Positions 10,094 through 19,802 of a stretch of DNA of 26,179 bases are shown in pieces. The notes below the pieces were generated by a model. It had not been told where the DNA came from, did no database searches, and saw nothing but the letters and a program-made list of their open reading frames with translations. The stretch comes from Promethearchaeota archaeon (GTDB lineage Archaea > Asgardarchaeota > Lokiarchaeia > Sigyniarchaeales > SOKP01). The DNA is taken from contig JAEOTP010000065.1 in the NCBI GenBank assembly GCA_016839765.1, forward strand, positions 1 through 26,179, given 5' to 3'. The first letter of the stretch is position 1, and every line of letters starts with the position of its first letter. The translations under genes were made by a program, and so were the position numbers.

Positions 10094-11215
10094 GTGATTA
10101 TTTTGAGTGAGAATCAAAGGAATGGAAAGCAGGATAATTTGGGAAAATATACTCAAAAAGAAATCTTCGAAATACCTACTTCACTAAATAAGGCAACTCA
10201 ACAAAAGGATTTAATTAGTGCTATCGCTAAAGATGTAATTAACAGAGAACCTCATCATATTTATTTAATAGGGTCTGGAAGCTCATATCATGCAGGTTTT
10301 GCAATGTCTTATATGTTCAATCGCCTAATAAGGATTCCCACCTTTACTGAACTTTCAATGGAGTTTCAATATTTAATAGAACCAATACTAAGTGAAAATA
10401 ATTGCATAATAGCACTATCTCAAAGTGGAGAAACTAAGGATACGATTAATTCTATCGATCTTGCTAAAAAAGTAGGATGTTTAACGATTGCAATAACAAA
10501 TAATTTAGATTCTAATCTAGCTAAAAAATGCGATTATCATATTGATTTGAAGTGTAAAGAAGAGAAATCTGTATTAGCTACAAAAACTTATGTTTCTGAA
10601 TTAGCAGTATTAGCTATGTTATGCCTTGAGATTGCCAAAGAAAATAAATCTATTTCAAATGAAGAGTATAATAAGATTTGGGTTGAATTAATTCGTATAC
10701 CTGATAGAATTTATTCGGTGCTTCCTCTACTACATGAAAAAATAAAAATATGTGCCGAAAAATTTAAAAATACAAAATTCTGTTTTATTTTGGGAAGCGG
10801 CCCAGAATATGCTACAGCGATGGAAGCAGCTCTTAAATTAAAAGAGGGGGCTAGAATCTTTGGTCAGGCATACTCAACAGCGGAATTTCCACATGGCCCT
10901 ATTACATTAGCAGATTCAAATACATGTATTTTAGCAATAATACCTTATGAAGATGATAAAAGAAAGATTAAATTATTAGATTTACTCAAACGTATTAAAG
11001 AGAGAGAAGCTACAATTTTAGGTATTTATGAATCGGTAGAAAAAAAGATTCCTCCCAAACAAATCGATTATGGAATTGAAGTTCCTAATACTTTAAAAGA
11101 TTTACAGCCATTAATTATGATATTAGCTATTCAATTATTAACTTTAGAAATATCAAGGATAAATGGGATAAATTGTGATACTCCTAAATTCCTTTCAAAA
11201 GTTTCAGGGATATAA
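10094..11215 (+). CDS. Stand-alone double-SIS sugar-phosphate isomerase/deaminase (GlmS isomerase-domain-like; possible glucosamine-6-P deaminase or deglycase)
   Basis: GSGSS, SQSGET, VLATK, EAALKLKE, EFPHGP and C-terminal LSKV; no glutaminase domain. The true start is probably TTG at 10103, with AAGTGAT acting as SD. Confidence 0.85.
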   Translation: MIILSENQRNGKQDNLGKYTQKEIFEIPTSLNKATQQKDLISAIAKDVINREPHHIYLIGSGSSYHAGFAMSYMFNRLIRIPTFTELSMEFQYLIEPILSENNCIIALSQSGETKDTINSIDLAKKVGCLTIAITNNLDSNLAKKCDYHIDLKCKEEKSVLATKTYVSELAVLAMLCLEIAKENKSISNEEYNKIWVELIRIPDRIYSVLPLLHEKIKICAEKFKNTKFCFILGSGPEYATAMEAALKLKEGARIFGQAYSTAEFPHGPITLADSNTCILAIIPYEDDKRKIKLLDLLKRIKEREATILGIYESVEKKIPPKQIDYGIEVPNTLKDLQPLIMILAIQLLTLEISRINGINCDTPKFLSKVSGI

Positions 11216-11235
11216 ACAAGATATTAAAAAAAGGC

Positions 11236-12660
11236 TTAAATTAAATCTAATTCTTCCATTTTAGACTGAACTAACTGATTAATCTCTTTAGTTTTTTCAA
11301 AATCTTTGTTGGATTCACCTGAAATTCTTAAATAAGGACTTGTACCCGAACGTCGGATTAAAAACCAGCCTTCATCATAATCAAAACGACATCCATCTAT
11401 AGTATTAATATTTTCTATTTTTTTACCTAAATTATTCAGTGTATTCTTCATCTTTTCAATAATTTTGTTATTAATTTCTTTAGTAAAAGAGATATCTCTC
11501 TTTAGTTTAAATTTCTCCGCGTAATATGGGTAATTAGGGATGTCTGCTAATAGTTCTTTCAAACTTTTTCCATTTTTAACAATCATATGTAATACATTAG
11601 CAATTGTAGCAATAGAGTCCGGACCATAATGAAATTTCGGCCAAATGTAAGTTCCCGAAGTTTCTCCACCAAGAAAACCTCCAAATTCCTTTAAAGCTAA
11701 AGCAACCTTTATATCTCCTACCTCTGTTCTAATAACTTCACATCCTAATGGATTTAATACGTGTTCTATTAGACTTGAGGAATTTACTGGTGTTACTACT
11801 TTCATATCCTTATTAGATAATTTATCTTTGTTATCTAGTATGAAAATTTTAGCCATAAGTGCTAATAATCTAATTGGATCAATGATTTCTCCATTTTCAT
11901 CTAAAAAGATCACTCTATCAGCATCACCATCAAGCGCTATACCTATATCCTCTTGAGGTGAAATTTTTAAAAATTTTGAAATTTGTATTAGATTTTCCTT
12001 ACTTGGTTCGCTTGCTCTTCCCGGAAATCGACCATCCATTTGGGCATTTATAGTAACTATGTTAATATCATATTTACTTAATAAATTGGGAACTATATCA
12101 CATCCAGAACCATTTCCGGGATCGACAATTACATTTAATTTACTTCCATCGAATAAAATTCGATTAGTGATGTCTAATATATGAATATCATTTATATCAT
12201 TAATAGCGGTTATTTTACCCACTTCATCCCATTTTATGTTCCTAAAATCTTTATCATTATAGATGCGTTCTATTTCTTCTTCTTGTTCTGGAGAAAATCC
12301 TACGCCAGAAGGATTCCATAATTTTAAACCTATATATTCAGGAGTATTATGTGATGCTGTTATCATAACTCCAGCATCTGCATTTAAATATCGTAATGAC
12401 ATTGCTAATGTAGGAGTTGTGACAATTCCTAGGGTTTTTACATTAGAACCTGTACTTATTAATCCGGAAATGAGAGCATATTCTACTGGTAAGGCGGAAG
12501 TTCTAATATCTTTACCTATAACAACAGTTCCTCCATTTACATAAGTACTAAGAGCTAAACCTACCTCCAATGCCATTTGTGGAGTAAACATCAAATCAGA
12601 CTCAGAATAACTCTGAAATACGCGCCTTATTCCTGATGTACCAAAAATATTGCTCGTCAT
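11236..12660 (-). CDS. glmM: Alpha-D-phosphohexomutase (phosphoglucosamine mutase or PMM/PGM)
   Basis: FGTSGIR, ITASHN (phospho-Ser), DGDADR (metal loop), GGETSG, IRRSGTSP. GlmM specificity is inferred only from adjacency to glmS. Confidence 0.8.
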   Translation of the reverse strand: MTSNIFGTSGIRRVFQSYSESDLMFTPQMALEVGLALSTYVNGGTVVIGKDIRTSALPVEYALISGLISTGSNVKTLGIVTTPTLAMSLRYLNADAGVMITASHNTPEYIGLKLWNPSGVGFSPEQEEEIERIYNDKDFRNIKWDEVGKITAINDINDIHILDITNRILFDGSKLNVIVDPGNGSGCDIVPNLLSKYDINIVTINAQMDGRFPGRASEPSKENLIQISKFLKISPQEDIGIALDGDADRVIFLDENGEIIDPIRLLALMAKIFILDNKDKLSNKDMKVVTPVNSSSLIEHVLNPLGCEVIRTEVGDIKVALALKEFGGFLGGETSGTYIWPKFHYGPDSIATIANVLHMIVKNGKSLKELLADIPNYPYYAEKFKLKRDISFTKEINNKIIEKMKNTLNNLGKKIENINTIDGCRFDYDEGWFLIRRSGTSPYLRISGESNKDFEKTKEINQLVQSKMEELDLI

Positions 12661-12983: not shown

Positions 12984-14462
12984 ATGATTTTCCAAGGGCT
13001 TTTTAACATTTTAAGTTTGTATTTAGATGATATAGATCTTTTTTATAATGCCATTGATACCTATTTCCGAGAAAGAATTAATGATAGCTTTCAAATAACT
13101 TCATTGAATAAAGAGGAATTAGATAATAAAATCGATAAATTAATTGATTTAATTACAGATGAATTCTTACAAATGGGATTTAATCAAAATGAGATAGAAA
13201 ATAAATTCTTAGACCTTGGAATCGAATTGAATAAATGTGATAAATTTGAGCTTAGTTCCCTAGTAGAACTTTATGATTTGATAATTTCACCAATTATATT
13301 CGAAATCTTTCTGGAAAAAATTGTAGATTATTTAGTGGATATATCAATTTCCCCTTTAATCTTAAATTTAAAATCAAAAGGGTTGCTTCCCTTGGAATTC
13401 ATAGTAGAATTGCGAAATTTAAAAGATCTACTGGATGCAAATCCTGAAAATAAAGAAAACCTAAAAAAATATTTACAGATTAGAGAAAAGTTTATCACAA
13501 AATTAAGTCAAAATAAAAGTACAATAGAAAGTTTGGAAGATTTAAATAATCCAAAGGATAAATTACAATTACTCTACCTAATATATCGAATAATTAGTTT
13601 TTTCCATTTAGAAAAAAGGTTCGATTTTTCTCACATAAAAGATTATATTGTGAATAATGTTAATGAGTGGTTAATTACTATTCCGTTAGTTACTTTGAGA
13701 AACCCAGATCTTTATTTTTGTGGATTATTTTTAGCTAAAAGTTTGAATATTAAACTTAATCCCGAAAAAGTAAAAAAATTTTTATTGGATCTTTATGAGG
13801 AAGGTGTTGATGAATTTGAAGCTCCATTAGTAGAAGCTACAGATGGATTATATTACTTTTTAAAATCAACAGAATTCATGAAAATATGGTTAAACGATGA
13901 AAAAGTTAATAGATTAATTGAAACTGATCAAAAATTTTTTGAACCTAATTATTTAAAGGATTTAGAGACATCTCAGTTAGTTGTAATATTAAAAATTTAT
14001 ACTTTACTTAGGAAAATTAAATTAGAACAAAATATAAATGCAATATTGGAAGAATTAGAACAAAGAATAACTCCTGAAGGCATTAAACAGTATCGCGACG
14101 GATTTATATCTTCTGAGGCAACCTACTACACATTATTTTGTAATTACATGAGAAATACATTAGATAAGTTAAAGGAGTATGATTTGTTAAATAGTATAGT
14201 TTCAAGGATTTATAGAAATTTAGAACTCTTAGAATTTTCAGCAGACACCAATTTTGATTTAATATCTGAGCTATTTTATTCATTTGAAAGTTTAAAATTA
14301 TTTAATTGTGTAGAAACGAGACAAATGATAATCCATCTTGCTAAATATTTATTTCCAAAAGAAGTTGTAGAAAAAATATCACTTAATACAGAGATAATTG
14401 AAACTAAAGCAAGATTCCGGCATTTGAAAGTTGATAGAATAACAGGAGAAACTATTTATTAA
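12984..14462 (+). CDS. Hypothetical all-helical protein with C-terminal ~46-aa repeats (possible alpha/alpha toroid)
   Basis: 492-aa ORF, Leu/Ile/Glu/Lys-rich with no clear transmembrane segment; six periodic Tyr/Leu-rich helices in the C-terminal 300 aa. Confidence 0.7.
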   Translation: MIFQGLFNILSLYLDDIDLFYNAIDTYFRERINDSFQITSLNKEELDNKIDKLIDLITDEFLQMGFNQNEIENKFLDLGIELNKCDKFELSSLVELYDLIISPIIFEIFLEKIVDYLVDISISPLILNLKSKGLLPLEFIVELRNLKDLLDANPENKENLKKYLQIREKFITKLSQNKSTIESLEDLNNPKDKLQLLYLIYRIISFFHLEKRFDFSHIKDYIVNNVNEWLITIPLVTLRNPDLYFCGLFLAKSLNIKLNPEKVKKFLLDLYEEGVDEFEAPLVEATDGLYYFLKSTEFMKIWLNDEKVNRLIETDQKFFEPNYLKDLETSQLVVILKIYTLLRKIKLEQNINAILEELEQRITPEGIKQYRDGFISSEATYYTLFCNYMRNTLDKLKEYDLLNSIVSRIYRNLELLEFSADTNFDLISELFYSFESLKLFNCVETRQMIIHLAKYLFPKEVVEKISLNTEIIETKARFRHLKVDRITGETIY

Positions 14463-14572: not shown

Positions 14573-16054
14573 TTGATGAACCTAGAAAATTTTGAGATTA
14601 TTTATAAAGAAAATAGAATCGAGATTAAAAATAAACAGAAAATGAAAGAGAAATTAATTGAAATTGTTGGCGATGGAAATGTCTCAATTGATAAAATTGA
14701 TCTCTTAGCATATTCAAGAGATTCGACCCTAATTACTTTAAATTGGACAATTCAAGGAAAAATTGCTGGCTTACCAGATTTCGTGGTTTGGCCAGAAAAT
14801 AAAGCTCAAATTTCGGAGATTCTAAGATTAGCCAATAATGAAAAAATTCCTGTTATTCCTTATGGGGAAGGTTCTGGAGTTGTTGGAGGAGCTATACCCA
14901 TCTATGGTGGCATTATAGTTGATATGAAAAAGTTTAATAAGATCCTTGAAATTAATGATAAGGATTTGACTGCAACTGTAGAAACAGGGATTAATGGAAT
15001 GAATTTGGAGAGGTATCTGAATGCTAAAGGTTACACTTCTGGTCATATTCCTCAATCACTTTACATCTCCTCATTAGGGGGCTGGATTGCACATAGAGCT
15101 GCTGGCCAATTTAGTACTAAATACGGGAAGATTGAGGATATGGTATTAGGAATGGAAGTAGTTCTACCTCAAGGAAATATAATCGATTTTAAACCAATTA
15201 TACGAGCTTCAACAGGACCTCAACTTAATAAATTATTCATTGGAGCTGAAGGGACTTTAGGAATAGTGACTAAAGCCACTTTAAAAATTTGGCCTTTTCC
15301 TGAAAAAAGAGCGCTAATTTCTTATGCCTTTCCTATAATTGAAGATTCTTTTAATGCTACAAGAGAAATTATGAGGGAACATATCTTTCCTGCTGTAATA
15401 AGAATTTATGATCAATTTGAAACGGAACGACATTTTGTAGATATTGAGCAAGCTAAAGATAAAGTTATGGTTGTATTTGTATGTGAAGGAAATAAAAAAT
15501 TAGTTGAGCTTGAAGAAACTATAACCAAGGAAAAATGTGAAAATAATAAGGGTATTAATTGTGGGGAACATCCTGTAGAACACTGGTTCGAAACTAGATT
15601 TAGAGTTACAGAAACTTCCACAATGCCGCCATATAAAATTGTATTTGATACTTTAGAGATAGCTTCATCGTGGGATAATGCTGCAAAAATTTATCATAGT
15701 GTTATCGATTCTGTAAATAGTTTAAAGGGCATTTTAATAATTTCAGCTCATGTATCGCATTTCTATCCAAATGGGGTAGGAATTTATTTTACTCTTGGAG
15801 GGGTCCCCCCCAAAGGAAAAACAGAATTTGAATTTTATCAAAAATGTTGGGATACAACAATAAGAGGTGTTTTAGATGCAGGTGGTTCCATAGCTCATCA
15901 TCATGGCATTGGTATCAATAGATCGCATTGGATGGAAGAAGAGTGGGGTAAATCTATGGATATAATGAGAAATATTAAGAGGTTACTCGATCCCAACAAT
16001 ATTCTTAATCCAGGAAAAGTTTATACACATATTTGGAAGGGGAGTGAATCATAA
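14573..16054 (+). CDS. FAD-linked oxidoreductase, VAO/PCMH family, alkyl-dihydroxyacetone-phosphate synthase (AGPS)/YgcU-like
   Basis: PDFVVWP, PYGEGSGVVGG, GHIPQS...SLGGWIAHRAAGQFSTKYGKIED, GAEGTLGIVT, SHFYPNG, AHHHGIG, LDPNNILNPGK. Start uncertain (TTG 14573, ATG 14576 or ATG 14642). Confidence 0.88.
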   Translation: MMNLENFEIIYKENRIEIKNKQKMKEKLIEIVGDGNVSIDKIDLLAYSRDSTLITLNWTIQGKIAGLPDFVVWPENKAQISEILRLANNEKIPVIPYGEGSGVVGGAIPIYGGIIVDMKKFNKILEINDKDLTATVETGINGMNLERYLNAKGYTSGHIPQSLYISSLGGWIAHRAAGQFSTKYGKIEDMVLGMEVVLPQGNIIDFKPIIRASTGPQLNKLFIGAEGTLGIVTKATLKIWPFPEKRALISYAFPIIEDSFNATREIMREHIFPAVIRIYDQFETERHFVDIEQAKDKVMVVFVCEGNKKLVELEETITKEKCENNKGINCGEHPVEHWFETRFRVTETSTMPPYKIVFDTLEIASSWDNAAKIYHSVIDSVNSLKGILIISAHVSHFYPNGVGIYFTLGGVPPKGKTEFEFYQKCWDTTIRGVLDAGGSIAHHHGIGINRSHWMEEEWGKSMDIMRNIKRLLDPNNILNPGKVYTHIWKGSES

Positions 16055-17329
16055 ATGGGAATATTTGAAACTTTAAAAAAATATAAATGGATGCTCCCCC
16101 TTATTGGCAAAGCAGATAGAGAGACAAAATCGATTCTATTAAAAAATTTTCGCCAAAAAAAGAAGAATTTTTATCCAGAGGGGGAGTATAAAGCAGATAT
16201 CGACAATTTAATTAAATGTATGCTATGCCCAAATATGTGCAGATTTGATTGTGGCACGCTACAAGCTTCAAATACAGAATCTATGAGTCCCGCCTATAAA
16301 GCGAGAATTGGTTATTATCTTTCAATAGGAAAGATTGATCCAACTCAACCAGAGAATAAACAATTCATTGACCTAATGTATAAATGTACCAATGAAGAAA
16401 ATTGTAAAGTTTGGTGTCCATTTGAGTTCTCAGTTGTTTCCTTATTAGAAACTGTGAGAGATGATCTAAATGATAAAGGATTAATGCCAGACTACTGTAA
16501 GGGGCAAATTGAGAAATTAAATAAGACAAAAACCATAGAAGATTATAATATTTTTGAAACTTTTAAAGAGAAAGGAATAGAAAATATTAAAACCGATGGA
16601 AATGATGAAGTTTTTTACTTTATTGGTTGCGAAATGATGAAATTTCCAAATGTGGTAAATGCTAATATTGCACTATTAAAAAAAGCAGGCATTAAATTTT
16701 CTACAAATCTTGAAAAAAGAGTTTGTTGTGGAGCACCTTCACTTACTATACGGGATATGGAAACAAGCAAAAATTTTGCTCAAGAGAATCATGAGTTAAT
16801 TAACAATACTGGAGCAAAAGTTTTAGTATCAGACTGTCCTGGGTGTGTATTAACATTATCAGAAAGATATAAAAATGTAGGAGTTAAAATTGACACAAAA
16901 GTTATTCATATTGTTGATTTTTTTAAAACTCTCATAGAAGAAGGAAAATTAAAGCCAAAAGGAGAATTACCAAAAGATTTGAAGAAAGTCGCAATTCATG
17001 ATCCATGTCTAATGACAAGAAATCTGAAAGATATAACCTCAATCAGAACTGTTCTTAAAGTTATCCCAAATTTAGAAATAATCGAACCTATTTATAATAA
17101 AGAATATACTCATTGTTGTGGTTGGAGCGGTACTGTCCATTGGGCAGATCAAGATCTTGCTATTAAAGAAGCATCAAATAGAATAGATGAATTAAAGGAA
17201 ACAGGCGTAAATCTTTTCATAACGGCATGTCCCCTATGTGAATTAGGATTAGCATATGGTCTTCTAGACAATGAAAAAGAAAAATATAAAATATTAGATA
17301 TATCTGAATTATTACTCAAAGTAATTTAA
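16055..17329 (+). CDS. Fe-S oxidoreductase subunit, GlpC/GlcF/HdrD-like (ferredoxin motifs plus two CCG domains)
   Basis: CMLCPNMCRFDC and CTNEENCKVWCP; FIGC...CCG...DCPGC; HDPC...CCG...ACPLC. ATG directly follows the upstream TAA and is preceded by a GGAGTGA SD. Confidence 0.9.
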   Translation: MGIFETLKKYKWMLPLIGKADRETKSILLKNFRQKKKNFYPEGEYKADIDNLIKCMLCPNMCRFDCGTLQASNTESMSPAYKARIGYYLSIGKIDPTQPENKQFIDLMYKCTNEENCKVWCPFEFSVVSLLETVRDDLNDKGLMPDYCKGQIEKLNKTKTIEDYNIFETFKEKGIENIKTDGNDEVFYFIGCEMMKFPNVVNANIALLKKAGIKFSTNLEKRVCCGAPSLTIRDMETSKNFAQENHELINNTGAKVLVSDCPGCVLTLSERYKNVGVKIDTKVIHIVDFFKTLIEEGKLKPKGELPKDLKKVAIHDPCLMTRNLKDITSIRTVLKVIPNLEIIEPIYNKEYTHCCGWSGTVHWADQDLAIKEASNRIDELKETGVNLFITACPLCELGLAYGLLDNEKEKYKILDISELLLKVI

Positions 17330-17376
17330 TATTTATTTTCAATTATTGTTGTTTTTTATGCATTTAAGGTGATAAA

Positions 17377-18837
17377 ATGAGTGATTATATATGTGTATTT
17401 GATGTAGGAACAACAGGGGCAAGGACAATTATATTCGATCTTGACGGAAATGAGATTGTAAAATCTTATGAACAATATCCTGTTATTAAACAACCGGTTG
17501 GGATATCAGAACAGGATCCCGAAATTTGGTGGACTGCTGTTAGAAATACATGTAATAAAGTGGTAAGAGCAATTAATCCTGATGATATAATAGGGATATC
17601 AGCGACATTTCTCCGAGGTACGGTAACAATGATTGATAAGAATGGTGAAGTGCTTCACCCCGCTTTAACTTGGATGGACGAAAGAGAAGCCCATACAGCA
17701 ATAGAATGGAAAAAGGAAGTTGATCTCAGAAGGTCGATTCCTAAAATACTCTGGGTTAAGAATAACAAACCAGATTTATTCAGTAAAACTGATAAAATTA
17801 TTCACACTGATTCCTATATATATATGAAATTATGTGAAGAATGTGTAACTGACCCATCAATTAGTATTTGGGGAATATTAAATAATAATTCACTTAAATG
17901 GGATGAGGAATTAGCGGAACGATTTGATTTACCCATAGACCTCTGGCCAGAACTGCATCAACCTGGAGAAATTATTGGTGAATTATCCAGTAGTGCTGCG
18001 GACGTTTTAGGTTTAAAGAAAAACATTCCGATTATAGTCGGGGGCGGTGATCAACAATGCTCAGCATTAGGATTAGGAGCTATTAACGTAGGTCAGGTTA
18101 AAGCGACTACTGGGACAGGAACATTTTTAGATTATGTTGTAGATCACCCCATTGAAACCGCAGGAGATTTTCCTATTTTTTCATTACCTTCTGTTTTAGA
18201 GGGTAAGTGGAATATTGAGGGTGTTTATCCAGGATCAGGTGATGCATTAAAATGGTTTGCGAATAATTTCTCACAATTACATCTTAAACAGAGCCAAGAG
18301 CAGGGTAAAAATGTGTATGATATGCTAACTTCAGAAGCAGCAACAATACCCCCTGGAAGTGGAGGATTGTTATTTTTAACGGGATTATCTATCTTCCGAA
18401 AAGGGACTATTCATGGTTTAGATTGGAATCATACTAGAGCACATATAATACGTTCGATAATGGAATCTGCTGCCCTGGGTACTCGATATTATCTCCAAAC
18501 AACAGAAGCAATGGGGCGTGAAAAAACGACTGAATTAAGAGTTGATGGAGGAGGAATGAATAGTGATTTATGGGCTCAAATTTTTGCAGATATAACAGAG
18601 AAAAAAATATTAGTTTCAGAGAATAAAGATGGTGCTGCTATGGGTGCTGCAATTTTGGGATTTATTGGGAGTAAAAGATATGATACTGTTGAAAAAGCAA
18701 TTGAAAATATGGTTAGATTTCCTACATTTAAAAATCCAATTAAAGAAAATTCAAAAATATATAAAAAATTATATAGAATTTTTCTGCCAACACTTCTAGA
18801 AGTTTATTCAAAAAAGCGAGTTACCAAAGATTTATAA
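17377..18837 (+). CDS. FGGY-family carbohydrate kinase (xylulokinase/glycerol kinase-like)
   Basis: FDVGTTG, EQDPE.WW, WMDER, GGGDQQC, TTGTG, DGGG..S.LW.QI.AD, AMGAA; SD AAGGTGAT at 17366-17373. Confidence 0.93.
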   Translation: MSDYICVFDVGTTGARTIIFDLDGNEIVKSYEQYPVIKQPVGISEQDPEIWWTAVRNTCNKVVRAINPDDIIGISATFLRGTVTMIDKNGEVLHPALTWMDEREAHTAIEWKKEVDLRRSIPKILWVKNNKPDLFSKTDKIIHTDSYIYMKLCEECVTDPSISIWGILNNNSLKWDEELAERFDLPIDLWPELHQPGEIIGELSSSAADVLGLKKNIPIIVGGGDQQCSALGLGAINVGQVKATTGTGTFLDYVVDHPIETAGDFPIFSLPSVLEGKWNIEGVYPGSGDALKWFANNFSQLHLKQSQEQGKNVYDMLTSEAATIPPGSGGLLFLTGLSIFRKGTIHGLDWNHTRAHIIRSIMESAALGTRYYLQTTEAMGREKTTELRVDGGGMNSDLWAQIFADITEKKILVSENKDGAAMGAAILGFIGSKRYDTVEKAIENMVRFPTFKNPIKENSKIYKKLYRIFLPTLLEVYSKKRVTKDL

Positions 18838-18860
18838 TTTTTTCTTTTTTTCCACTTTTT
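18838..18860 (+). terminator. Putative archaeal oligo-T terminator ending the flavoprotein/Fe-S/kinase operon
   Basis: TTTTTTCTTTTTTTCCACTTTTT directly after the kinase stop codon. Confidence 0.55.
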
Positions 18861-18965
18861 CATGATTAATACCTGTTAAAATTAGTAATTCTGAAAATTT
18901 AGTAAAGTATTTTTGAAATCTTTTATTTCAAAAATTATTAGCAATACTCAATAAGAATTTCTTGC

Positions 18966-19802
18966 ATGCCTTATTTCATTAATAAAGAGGGTTATAAACT
19001 CTACTATGAAGATATCAATGGTGATACAAAAGAAAGTACAGAGGGTACTATAATTTTACTTCATGGTTTTGCTTCTTCAGCATCTTTTTTTAAAGGTCAA
19101 ATCCAAATTCTTAGAATAAATTATCGAATAATAGCGTTTGATGCTTTAGGGCATGGAAGAAGCGATCATCCTCAAAAAGTGGATCTTTCAAAGAATCTTA
19201 GATATGATATTATTAGAGATCTTGAGGACCTCCTTGAATATTTAAACGTTGACGAGAAATATGGTATAATAGGTCATTCACTTGTAGGTGGAATGATTGC
19301 ACAATTAATCTGTATGAAACATCCCAAAGATATTAAATTCCTTATTTTATTAAATTCTGGGTACATAATGATTGATAATGTAATAAGGAACATCTTTTAC
19401 AATTTGCTTCCTTATTTTATCCGGATGAATTTTTTACAAGTAGTTGCTAATTCTATTGAGCATATTTTAGATAAGATTATTCCCTATATTTTAAGATCCT
19501 TAGCAGAATCAATAAATGGAATGAAATTAACAAAAGATAAATTGTATATGTTAATAGAAGAACAAATCTTTGGAATGATAAATGAAATAAGTGAATATGA
19601 TCCATCAAATATAAAATGTCCAACACTCATTATTGGAGGAAGATTAGATAATTTTGCTCCAGAACAAATGTCAGAAGAATTACATAAAAAAATCCCTAAT
19701 TCCAAGCTTGAAATAATAGATATGGCAGGCCATTTTGCTCCAGCTCAACGTAAGGAAGCAATTAATGAGTTAATATGTGAGTTTATAAAAAATCTAAAGT
19801 GA
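18966..19802 (+). CDS. Alpha/beta-fold hydrolase
   Basis: LLHGF, FDALGHGRS, GHSLVGG (Ser), PTLIIGGRLD (Asp), AGHF (His). Confidence 0.9.
   Translation: MPYFINKEGYKLYYEDINGDTKESTEGTIILLHGFASSASFFKGQIQILRINYRIIAFDALGHGRSDHPQKVDLSKNLRYDIIRDLEDLLEYLNVDEKYGIIGHSLVGGMIAQLICMKHPKDIKFLILLNSGYIMIDNVIRNIFYNLLPYFIRMNFLQVVANSIEHILDKIIPYILRSLAESINGMKLTKDKLYMLIEEQIFGMINEISEYDPSNIKCPTLIIGGRLDNFAPEQMSEELHKKIPNSKLEIIDMAGHFAPAQRKEAINELICEFIKNLK

Follow-up and report, generated by a model that had tools for sequence, protein, structure and literature searches.

A conserved module of an AGPS-type flavoprotein, an iron-sulfur subunit and a kinase in a Promethearchaeota genome

We analyzed a three-gene module on contig JAEOTP010000065.1 of a Promethearchaeota archaeon (assembly GCA_016839765.1; genome size of 3.3 Mb, 96% complete). 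The window is the whole 26-kb contig (positions 1 to 26,179). The module encodes a flavoprotein resembling AGPS, the alkyl-dihydroxyacetone phosphate (alkyl-DHAP) synthase of ether-lipid synthesis, together with an iron-sulfur subunit of the HdrD/GlpC type (the CCG subunit) and a kinase of the FGGY family. It is real, conserved and uncharacterized, and it combines the format of a flavin adenine dinucleotide (FAD)/Fe-S dehydrogenase with an active site of the AGPS type. The sequence evidence points, with a probability of roughly 55%, to a two-subunit dehydrogenase for a phosphorylated glycerol- or DHAP-type compound, which the kinase would supply and whose electrons would exit by way of the CCG subunit. 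An earlier note, made from the sequence alone, had proposed an ether-lipid or glycerol-derivative pathway for these genes, and its interpretation is partly supported.

A flavoprotein with AGPS-type residues

By sequence, the nearest solved relatives of the flavoprotein are AGPS enzymes, namely those of Dictyostelium (2uuu; E value of 3e-61, 211 bits) and guinea pig (4bby; 9e-55, 189 bits). The match to D-lactate dehydrogenase (mouse LDHD) was weaker (7e-45), with AGPS ahead by 54 bits. The AlphaFold (AF2) model of the flavoprotein had a pLDDT of 85.9. In Foldseek searches it matched AGPS at 1e-38 and LDHD at 1e-33, and the VIA-align Z scores were tied (37.8 for mouse LDHD and 36.5 for AGPS). 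Fold alone does not separate AGPS from LDHD; individual residues do.

The catalytic residues of AGPS were mapped through the PDB mutant chains 4bc7 (R419) and 4bca (Y578). Guinea pig R419 (Dictyostelium R352) corresponds to R277 of the window flavoprotein, the arginine of PAVIRIYD, and Y578 (Dictyostelium Y508) corresponds to Y405, the tyrosine of GIYF. The translation also carries SGHIPQSLYISSLGGWIAHRAAGQFSTKYGKIEDMV and AHHHGIG, in which H442 to H444 and G445 (HHHG, nucleotides 15896 to 15907) hold the place of the AGPS triad. R277, Y405 and H442 to H444 are invariant in an alignment of 30 sequences (Asgard, Thermoplasmatota, Bathyarchaeota, Chloroflexota, Bacillota and others) and nearly so in a set of 128 rows, among them Escherichia coli YgcU and 75 distant representatives. 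Dictyostelium R352, R447 and Y508 are needed for AGPS catalysis (review PMC3509576). Three of the four AGPS catalytic positions are retained by the flavoprotein. The R447 position is not; it is Thr, Ser, Gly or a gap in the aligned family, in a loop whose alignment is not fully secure. The AGPS N-terminal gating region has no counterpart either. The model aligns only to residues 148 to 658 of the guinea pig enzyme and 81 to 586 of the Dictyostelium enzyme, and the flavoprotein has about 20 residues ahead of the common core, its N terminus being about 90 to 160 residues shorter than that of AGPS. In AGPS (also called ADPS; EC 2.5.1.26), the fatty-chain channel is controlled by the gate-keeping helix of an extra, enzyme-specific domain (PMC3509576).

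Mouse LDHD was used as the comparator for the GEHG type of active site, the VAO paralogues of the genome being too divergent. Its Mn2+ ligands are His398, His405 and Glu442 (PMC10589216). Glu442 aligns to His443 of the flavoprotein, which does not have the His-His-Glu divalent-metal site; the HHH stands where D-lactate dehydrogenase has Gly/Thr-Glu-His. The H..GDGN.H segment could not be aligned by HMMER, and the AGPS-type SHFYPNGVGIYF is found in its place. Curated models of the GlcD type stayed below their cutoffs (TIGR00387 glcD, the top NCBIfam match, 243 bits against 568; NF008408, 130 against 897). The predicted active site is thus of the AGPS type on a shorter, LDHD-sized scaffold without the metal site, because the AGPS residues are kept, His stands in for the metal-binding Glu of LDHD and the N-terminal region is missing. 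This agrees with the earlier note, which had placed the flavoprotein with AGPS and not with GlcD.

Obligatory pairing with an iron-sulfur subunit

The CCG subunit has ferredoxin-like Cys motifs and two complete CCG domains, and no predicted membrane anchor was seen in it. Its partial NCBIfam matches to TfrB, LdhH, GlpC and GlcF were all below the cutoffs, and its PDB matches were HdrB and a 1,042-amino-acid FAD/Fe-S reductase. In a comparison of some 80 loci (Asgard, Thermoplasmatota, Bathyarchaeota, Dehalococcoidia and Bacillota), the CCG gene adjoined the flavoprotein gene in essentially all 80. Outside Asgard it is adjacent in 40/40 of the loci that have sequence downstream, and the two proteins also occur fused (representative P0129, 894 amino acids). 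A protein with two CCG domains and 4Fe-4S motifs that neighbors a VAO-type flavoprotein, or is fused to it, is the architecture of the FAD-oxidase and CCG/GlpC-like two-subunit dehydrogenases. Elsewhere in the genome, a CCG gene lies within about 1 to 2 kb of each of at least six more VAO-type flavoprotein genes, a sizeable group of paralogues, indicating that this pairing is a standard dehydrogenase format in this genome.

The dedicated electron-transfer partner postulated from the window alone is thereby found across phyla, and such a partner argues for net electron transfer by the flavoprotein. The queries used for MqnA/D and MenA gave no homologue in this genome (96% complete), which makes a quinone acceptor doubtful.

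Several known enzymes have a comparable architecture. The LdhAB-type D-lactate dehydrogenase of Desulfovibrio is a two-subunit FAD/Fe-S D-2-hydroxyacid dehydrogenase. In GlcDEF glycolate oxidase and in YdiJ, a VAO-type flavoprotein likewise passes electrons to a GlpC-like 4Fe-4S/CCG module. However, the His-His-Glu metal site with which GlcDEF, LdhAB and YdiJ handle the 2-hydroxyacid is replaced in the window flavoprotein by AGPS-type residues. E. coli YdiJ is a fused FAD/Fe-S D-2-hydroxyglutarate dehydrogenase with an unknown physiological acceptor (PMC9504171). AGPS, for its part, shares with the window flavoprotein the VAO-type FAD and cap domains and the equivalents of Arg419, Tyr578 and HHH, and a DHAP-type ligand is plausible for the window flavoprotein. 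In contrast to AGPS, the window flavoprotein is always paired with a CCG protein and occurs in operons with kinases and glycerol-3-phosphate dehydrogenases, not with FAR or GNPAT.

Kinases and operon context in other lineages

The window kinase was below every NCBIfam cutoff, with scores of 248/380 for XylB (TIGR01312), 221/528 for LsrK, 178/590 for GlpK and 125/912 for the xylulokinase model NF011601. On these scores it qualifies neither as a canonical glycerol kinase nor as a canonical xylulokinase. The glycerol site of GlpK consists of E. coli R84, E85, W104, Y136 and D246 (Met1 counted). The window kinase retains three of these residues (R84, W104 and D246), with Gly at the position of E85 and a deletion that takes in Y136. 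The operon kinase of Thermoplasmatota passes the GlpK subfamily model (586 versus a cutoff of 498) and is also without Glu85 and Tyr136, having gained about 30 residues in that region. Both changes recur in the GlpK-like gene that follows the CCG gene in some Asgard loci. An unlinked FGGY gene on contig C22 of the genome retains both residues (NQRET and DPYF).

In seven bacterial loci the FGGY gene is absent and a lipid kinase of the YegS/Rv2252/BmrU family takes its position (TIGR00147, 173 and 147 bits with a cutoff of 119). In the flavoprotein tree, the seven loci are divided between two separate clades. Orthologues of the window kinase with 41 to 43% identity are linked to AGPS-like operons in other Asgard families, indicating that the window type is the cognate kinase of the module in Asgard. 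The phylum-wide kinase search (E value of ≤1e-90) also caught 35 to 45% paralogues in families without the flavoprotein, and only matches with ≥58% identity or physical linkage were used. The minimal conserved unit is the flavoprotein, the CCG subunit and a kinase, of which the kinase family is interchangeable. As proposed earlier, a kinase is functionally tied to the flavoprotein, and this holds across phyla, with an FGGY, GlpK-like or YegS-type kinase beside the pair. Interchangeable kinases and remodeled glycerol pockets suggest that the substrate is a substituted glycerol, possibly with a lipid chain.

Operons of Thermoplasmatota, Dehalococcoidia and Bacillota begin with the pair and also contain a GlpA-type dehydrogenase (DAO and BFD domains), a Pyr_redox_2 protein, DUF1667 and a kinase. 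The operon kinase of Thermoplasmatota and Dehalococcoidia is of the FGGY family, and GlpA often has a BON domain there, a putative membrane-binding domain. Five bacterial loci (labeled Syntrophomonadaceae, Methylocystaceae, Chitinophagales and Solirubrobacterales) encode a CCG-GlpA fusion of about 940 amino acids. Other Asgard families have the gene order kinase-GlpA-...-CCG-flavoprotein-CCG or kinase-flavoprotein-CCG; embedding of the pair in GlpA operons thus holds outside the window's own Asgard family. The link to glycerol phosphate is much stronger than could be seen from the window, owing to these GlpA/GlpK operons and CCG-GlpA fusions. The set of GlpA, an NADH-oxidase-like protein and DUF1667 is the Thermococcus-type arrangement (PMC11962113), and a GlpA/Pyr_redox_2/DUF1667 trio is present in the same genome on another contig (C51, 9622 to 11702), where it is followed by a membrane methyltransferase gene of the ICMT/PEMT type and a B12-binding radical SAM gene. 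The CCG subunit resembles GlpC of GlpABC, the anaerobic glycerol-3-phosphate dehydrogenase, and in relatives the pair is co-operonic with GlpA or sometimes fused to it. However, the window flavoprotein is VAO type and not DAO type, and it adds to GlpA instead of substituting for it.

E. coli YgcU (b4463) is a true, uncharacterized homologue of the flavoprotein (32% identity, 223 bits) with the same AGPS-like motifs, and, as the earlier note had stated, it lies near the FGGY kinase gene ygcE, in the cluster ygcNOPQRSUW-yqcE-ygcE. Its neighbors comprise genes for electron-transfer flavoprotein (ETF), a pair resembling ETF:quinone oxidoreductase (ETF-QO), a GlpP-family glycerol-3-phosphate antiterminator (YgcP), a short-chain dehydrogenase/reductase (SDR) and transporters. 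Unlike the window flavoprotein, YgcU has the ETF/ETF-QO-like set as its putative partner, not a CCG protein, and belongs to a different clade. The YgcU locus adds an independent electron partner of another kind and a further link to glycerol phosphate.

In a FastTree phylogeny, the Asgard and Bathyarchaeota flavoproteins were sister to those of Thermoplasmatota, and those of Dehalococcoidia and of the bacteria with CCG-GlpA fusions were in the same subfamily. YgcU and the forms fused to PfkB or HAD domains were outside it. Supports were modest, and the tree, which has no true AGPS among its sequences, was used for grouping only. The fused forms include an AGPS-like flavoprotein with an N-terminal PfkB sugar kinase (P0216, 825 amino acids) and one fused to a Cof-type HAD phosphatase (P0263, 773 amino acids). 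Several AGPS-like forms of 726 to 989 amino acids have two FAD_binding_4 domains.

Proposed reaction and alternatives

In the reading that we favor, the flavoprotein and the CCG protein would form a flavin/iron-sulfur dehydrogenase with the architecture of GlcDF, LdhAB and YdiJ. The FGGY kinase would phosphorylate a glycerol-like compound, possibly glycerol with a group at C1, and the site of Arg277, Tyr405 and His442 to His444 would hold DHAP or a molecule resembling glycerol phosphate. The flavoprotein would oxidize the phosphorylated substrate or its keto form, and electrons would run via the 4Fe-4S and CCG clusters to a soluble acceptor, probably not a quinone. Domain content, conserved residues, the pairing of flavoprotein and CCG subunit and the linkage to kinases and GlpA across phyla are observed; net redox catalysis, a substrate of the glycerol-phosphate or DHAP kind and the direction of electron flow are what we infer. 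In one chemically appealing version, the kinase would produce a 1-substituted glycerol-3-phosphate, its oxidation would give a 1-substituted DHAP, the substrate class of AGPS, and the AGPS-type site (Tyr as the base and flavin N5 as the electrophile) could then remove the substituent. Alternatively, oxidation of the carbon beside the ether oxygen could give a hemiacetal that collapses. Several observations weigh against a dehydrogenase of this kind. AGPS is redox neutral with the same catalytic residues, and residues alone are no proof of dehydrogenase chemistry. The GlpA of the operons covers the oxidation of glycerol-3-phosphate, so the AGPS-like enzyme would have to perform some further step. 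In the window itself there is no GlpA gene beside the pair, the trio lying on another contig.

A specific version of this explanation, and not its opposite, is the anaerobic catabolism of the backbones of glycerol-ether or -ester lipids, which we regard as rather unlikely. The kinase would phosphorylate 1-O-alkyl- or 1-acyl-glycerol, GlpA or the AGPS-like enzyme would oxidize the product to alkyl- or acyl-DHAP, and flavin-N5 chemistry or oxidation beside the ether oxygen would free the alcohol, leaving DHAP or glyceraldehyde-3-phosphate. Such a route would fit the lipid kinases that replace FGGY at above-cutoff scores in two clades, the loss of Glu85 and Tyr136 from operon-linked FGGY kinases (the GlpK-like ones included) and not from the unlinked one on C22, and the BON domain on the operon GlpA. 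It would also fit the genes for acyl-CoA synthetase and acyl-CoA dehydrogenase near several bacterial loci, the carriers being anaerobic sediment lineages, and the fact that the substrate class of AGPS is exactly 1-substituted DHAP. However, the flavoprotein has neither the domain credited with gating the lipid channel (the region before about residue 148 in guinea pig and 81 in Dictyostelium) nor the Dictyostelium Arg447 position, and the PfkB sugar kinase and HAD phosphatase fusions of distant members point to soluble substrates there. An esterase-type hydrolase gene follows the kinase gene in Asgard, but this synteny is confined to close relatives, in which the whole gene order is conserved anyway. 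In its most pointed form, the module would break or exchange the C1 ether or ester bond of glycerolipids independently of O2, with a lipid-type or remodeled kinase forming 1-radyl-glycerol phosphate, its oxidation yielding 1-radyl-DHAP, and the alcohol being freed or swapped at an AGPS-type, Fe-S-wired flavin; this we consider a little less likely again. A nonlipid route, with a pentulose, tetrose or polyol as the substrate of the kinase and oxidation of the resulting sugar phosphate by the flavoprotein, is in our view distinctly improbable. The window kinase does score best on the xylulokinase model, though below its cutoff, and its orthologues are annotated as xylulokinase by JGI; one locus from Dehalococcoidia also has genes for a class II aldolase, an LsrK-like kinase and an SDR; sugar-type transporters and an SDR belong to the ygc cluster of E. 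coli; and a PfkB-flavoprotein fusion exists. Yet the closest relatives of the flavoprotein are all in operons of the GlpA/GlpK type, the PfkB and HAD fusions and YgcU sit in other clades of the tree, and a lipid kinase is able to take the FGGY position.

The remaining two alternatives both fail in the defining features that were tested. A D-2-hydroxyacid dehydrogenase (D-lactate or glycolate) of the LdhAB or GlcDF type is very unlikely. The two-subunit architecture is common to both, glcD is the top NCBIfam match and the VIA-align Z score of mouse LDHD equals that of AGPS, but His takes the place of the metal-binding Glu of LDHD, the H..GDGN.H segment is replaced, sequence scores prefer AGPS, and the context is one of glycerol phosphate and includes neither a lactate permease nor glycolate genes. 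Least probable of all, and hardly credible, is a true alkyl-DHAP synthase, with ether lipids formed de novo or from free alcohols. Archaea form ether bonds by another route. Equivalents of R419, Y578 and HHH are retained, JGI annotation carries the alkyl-DHAP synthase name, and the genome holds acyltransferase genes of the PlsC family. Against this stand an obligatory Fe-S partner that is ill suited to a redox-neutral enzyme, the missing N-terminal gating region and Arg447 position, and an identity to mammalian AGPS of just 26 to 28%. No FAR or GNPAT gene is linked to the operon, and the PF01553 genes found genome-wide are unlinked; PF07993, used as the FAR probe, matched every control genome and is unspecific. 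A recent preprint found no such pathway in Archaea (10.1101/2025.10.10.681575). Ether-lipid synthesis by the module is thus not supported.

Relation to eukaryotic AGPS

The flavoprotein shares 26 to 28% identity with mammalian AGPS, compared to 40 to 57% with its archaeal (Thermoplasmatota) and bacterial relatives, and no eukaryotic or myxobacterial AGPS was among the top 150 representatives. P0235, which is extended at its N terminus, is no closer to AGPS than the window flavoprotein is. Within Asgard the distribution of the flavoprotein is patchy: it was found in 82/301 sampled genomes, among them 53/68 of its own family, and in 0/76 and 0/28 of two other families. Myxococcus and human AGPS have about 42% identity, and the eukaryotic pathway has been proposed to be a transfer from Myxococcota, with none found in Archaea (preprint 10.1101/2025.10.10.681575). 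The earlier note had suggested that the module would be relevant to the origin of eukaryotic AGPS if its host were Asgard. The host is indeed Asgard, but the low identity, the patchy distribution and the preprint's preference for Myxococcota speak against that relevance, and on identities and literature, on which this question rests, an Asgard origin of eukaryotic AGPS is not supported.

Layout of the locus and neighboring genes

The three open reading frames (ORFs) of the module lie on the + strand, and their positions, the motifs, the TAAATG junction and the oligo-T tract are as the earlier note had described them, with ORFs, Pfam matches and translation in agreement (Table 1). The closest relatives of the locus are Asgard metagenome-assembled genomes labeled Promethearchaeota, Lokiarchaeota and similar. 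The ORF list begins the flavoprotein at TTG 14573 (14573 to 16054); its start is probably ATG 14576, because orthologues begin at the Met one codon 3' of the TTG. The junction with the CCG gene reads TCA TAA ATG GGA, the stop standing directly against the ATG. A 47-nucleotide spacer (17330 to 17376) with the T-run TGTTGTTTTTTAT and a GGTGA five bases 5' of the ATG precedes the kinase, which may be partly uncoupled from the other two genes. The T-rich tract after the kinase stop is plausible as an archaeal terminator. A scan for bacterial-type promoters gave counts no higher than shuffles; the consensus is bacterial and the host archaeal, so the scan is not meaningful here.

Table 1. Features of the module and its surroundings (positions in the window)
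Feature	Position	Strand	Basis or remark
492-aa all-helical protein	12984..14462	+	Synteny within Asgard only
AGPS-like VAO/PCMH-family flavoprotein, 492 aa	14576..16054	+	Pfam FAD_binding_4 and FAD-oxidase_C
HHH triad H442-H444, equivalent of AGPS HHH	15896..15904	+	Alignments to 2uuu, 4bby and mouse LDHD
HdrD/GlpC-like iron-sulfur subunit	16055..17329	+	Pfam Fer4_8 and CCG (x2)
FGGY-family kinase	17377..18837	+	Pfam FGGY_N and FGGY_C
T-rich tract after kinase stop	18838..18866	+	Read directly: TAATTTTTTCTTTTTTTCCACTTTTTC; putative terminator
Alpha/beta hydrolase, esterase/lipase-type fold	18966..19802	+	Pfam Abhydrolase_1; PDB matches generic only
Further flavoprotein and CCG pairs	Contigs C53, C58, C11, C67 (two sites) and C64 of the same genome

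The 492-amino-acid protein upstream (P0124) had no Pfam or NCBIfam match, its AF2 model was weak (pLDDT of 64.5) and Foldseek gave no significant fold match. It is always upstream of the flavoprotein in its own Asgard family, where it is 60 to 97% conserved, and its gene is probably a separate transcription unit. The hydrolase gene downstream has the same orientation as the operon and is syntenic only within its own Asgard family, so its membership in the pathway is only putative. Farther upstream (10094 to 12660), a GlmS-like SIS-domain protein of 373 amino acids without a glutaminase domain has as its neighbor, encoded on the opposite strand, a phosphoglucosamine mutase of the archaeal type; this pair, which belongs to ordinary amino-sugar metabolism, is syntenic with the operon in Asgard. 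Elsewhere in the genome, contig C61 (1794 to 2960, - strand) has a 564-amino-acid frame with two PlsC/GNPAT-type domains (PF01553, E values of 1e-28 and 3e-24). PF01553 had no match in four archaeal control genomes, and the C61 gene gives this Asgard genome a glycerolipid acyltransferase of the bacterial type.

Implications

To our knowledge, AGPS is the sole enzyme in which oxidized flavin acts as the electrophile for a group exchange on DHAP. A large family of prokaryotic proteins appears to couple the same catalytic residues to iron-sulfur clusters, with 2,038 cluster representatives at E values of ≤1e-30, more distant VAO-type relatives included. "AGPS" (K00803) has been counted as an ether-lipid marker, including in LUCA (last universal common ancestor) reconstructions (PMC11383801). 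Archaeal K00803 annotations are probably not ether-lipid synthases. The reaction of the module would fill a gap in the anaerobic glycerol and glycerolipid metabolism of Asgard, Thermoplasmatota, Bathyarchaeota and Dehalococcoidia, which are abundant in sediments, and it would also clarify the role of E. coli YgcU. If true, a route that acts on the C1 bond would be the first anaerobic pathway of ether-lipid turnover or recycling in dominant archaea and bacteria of marine sediments.

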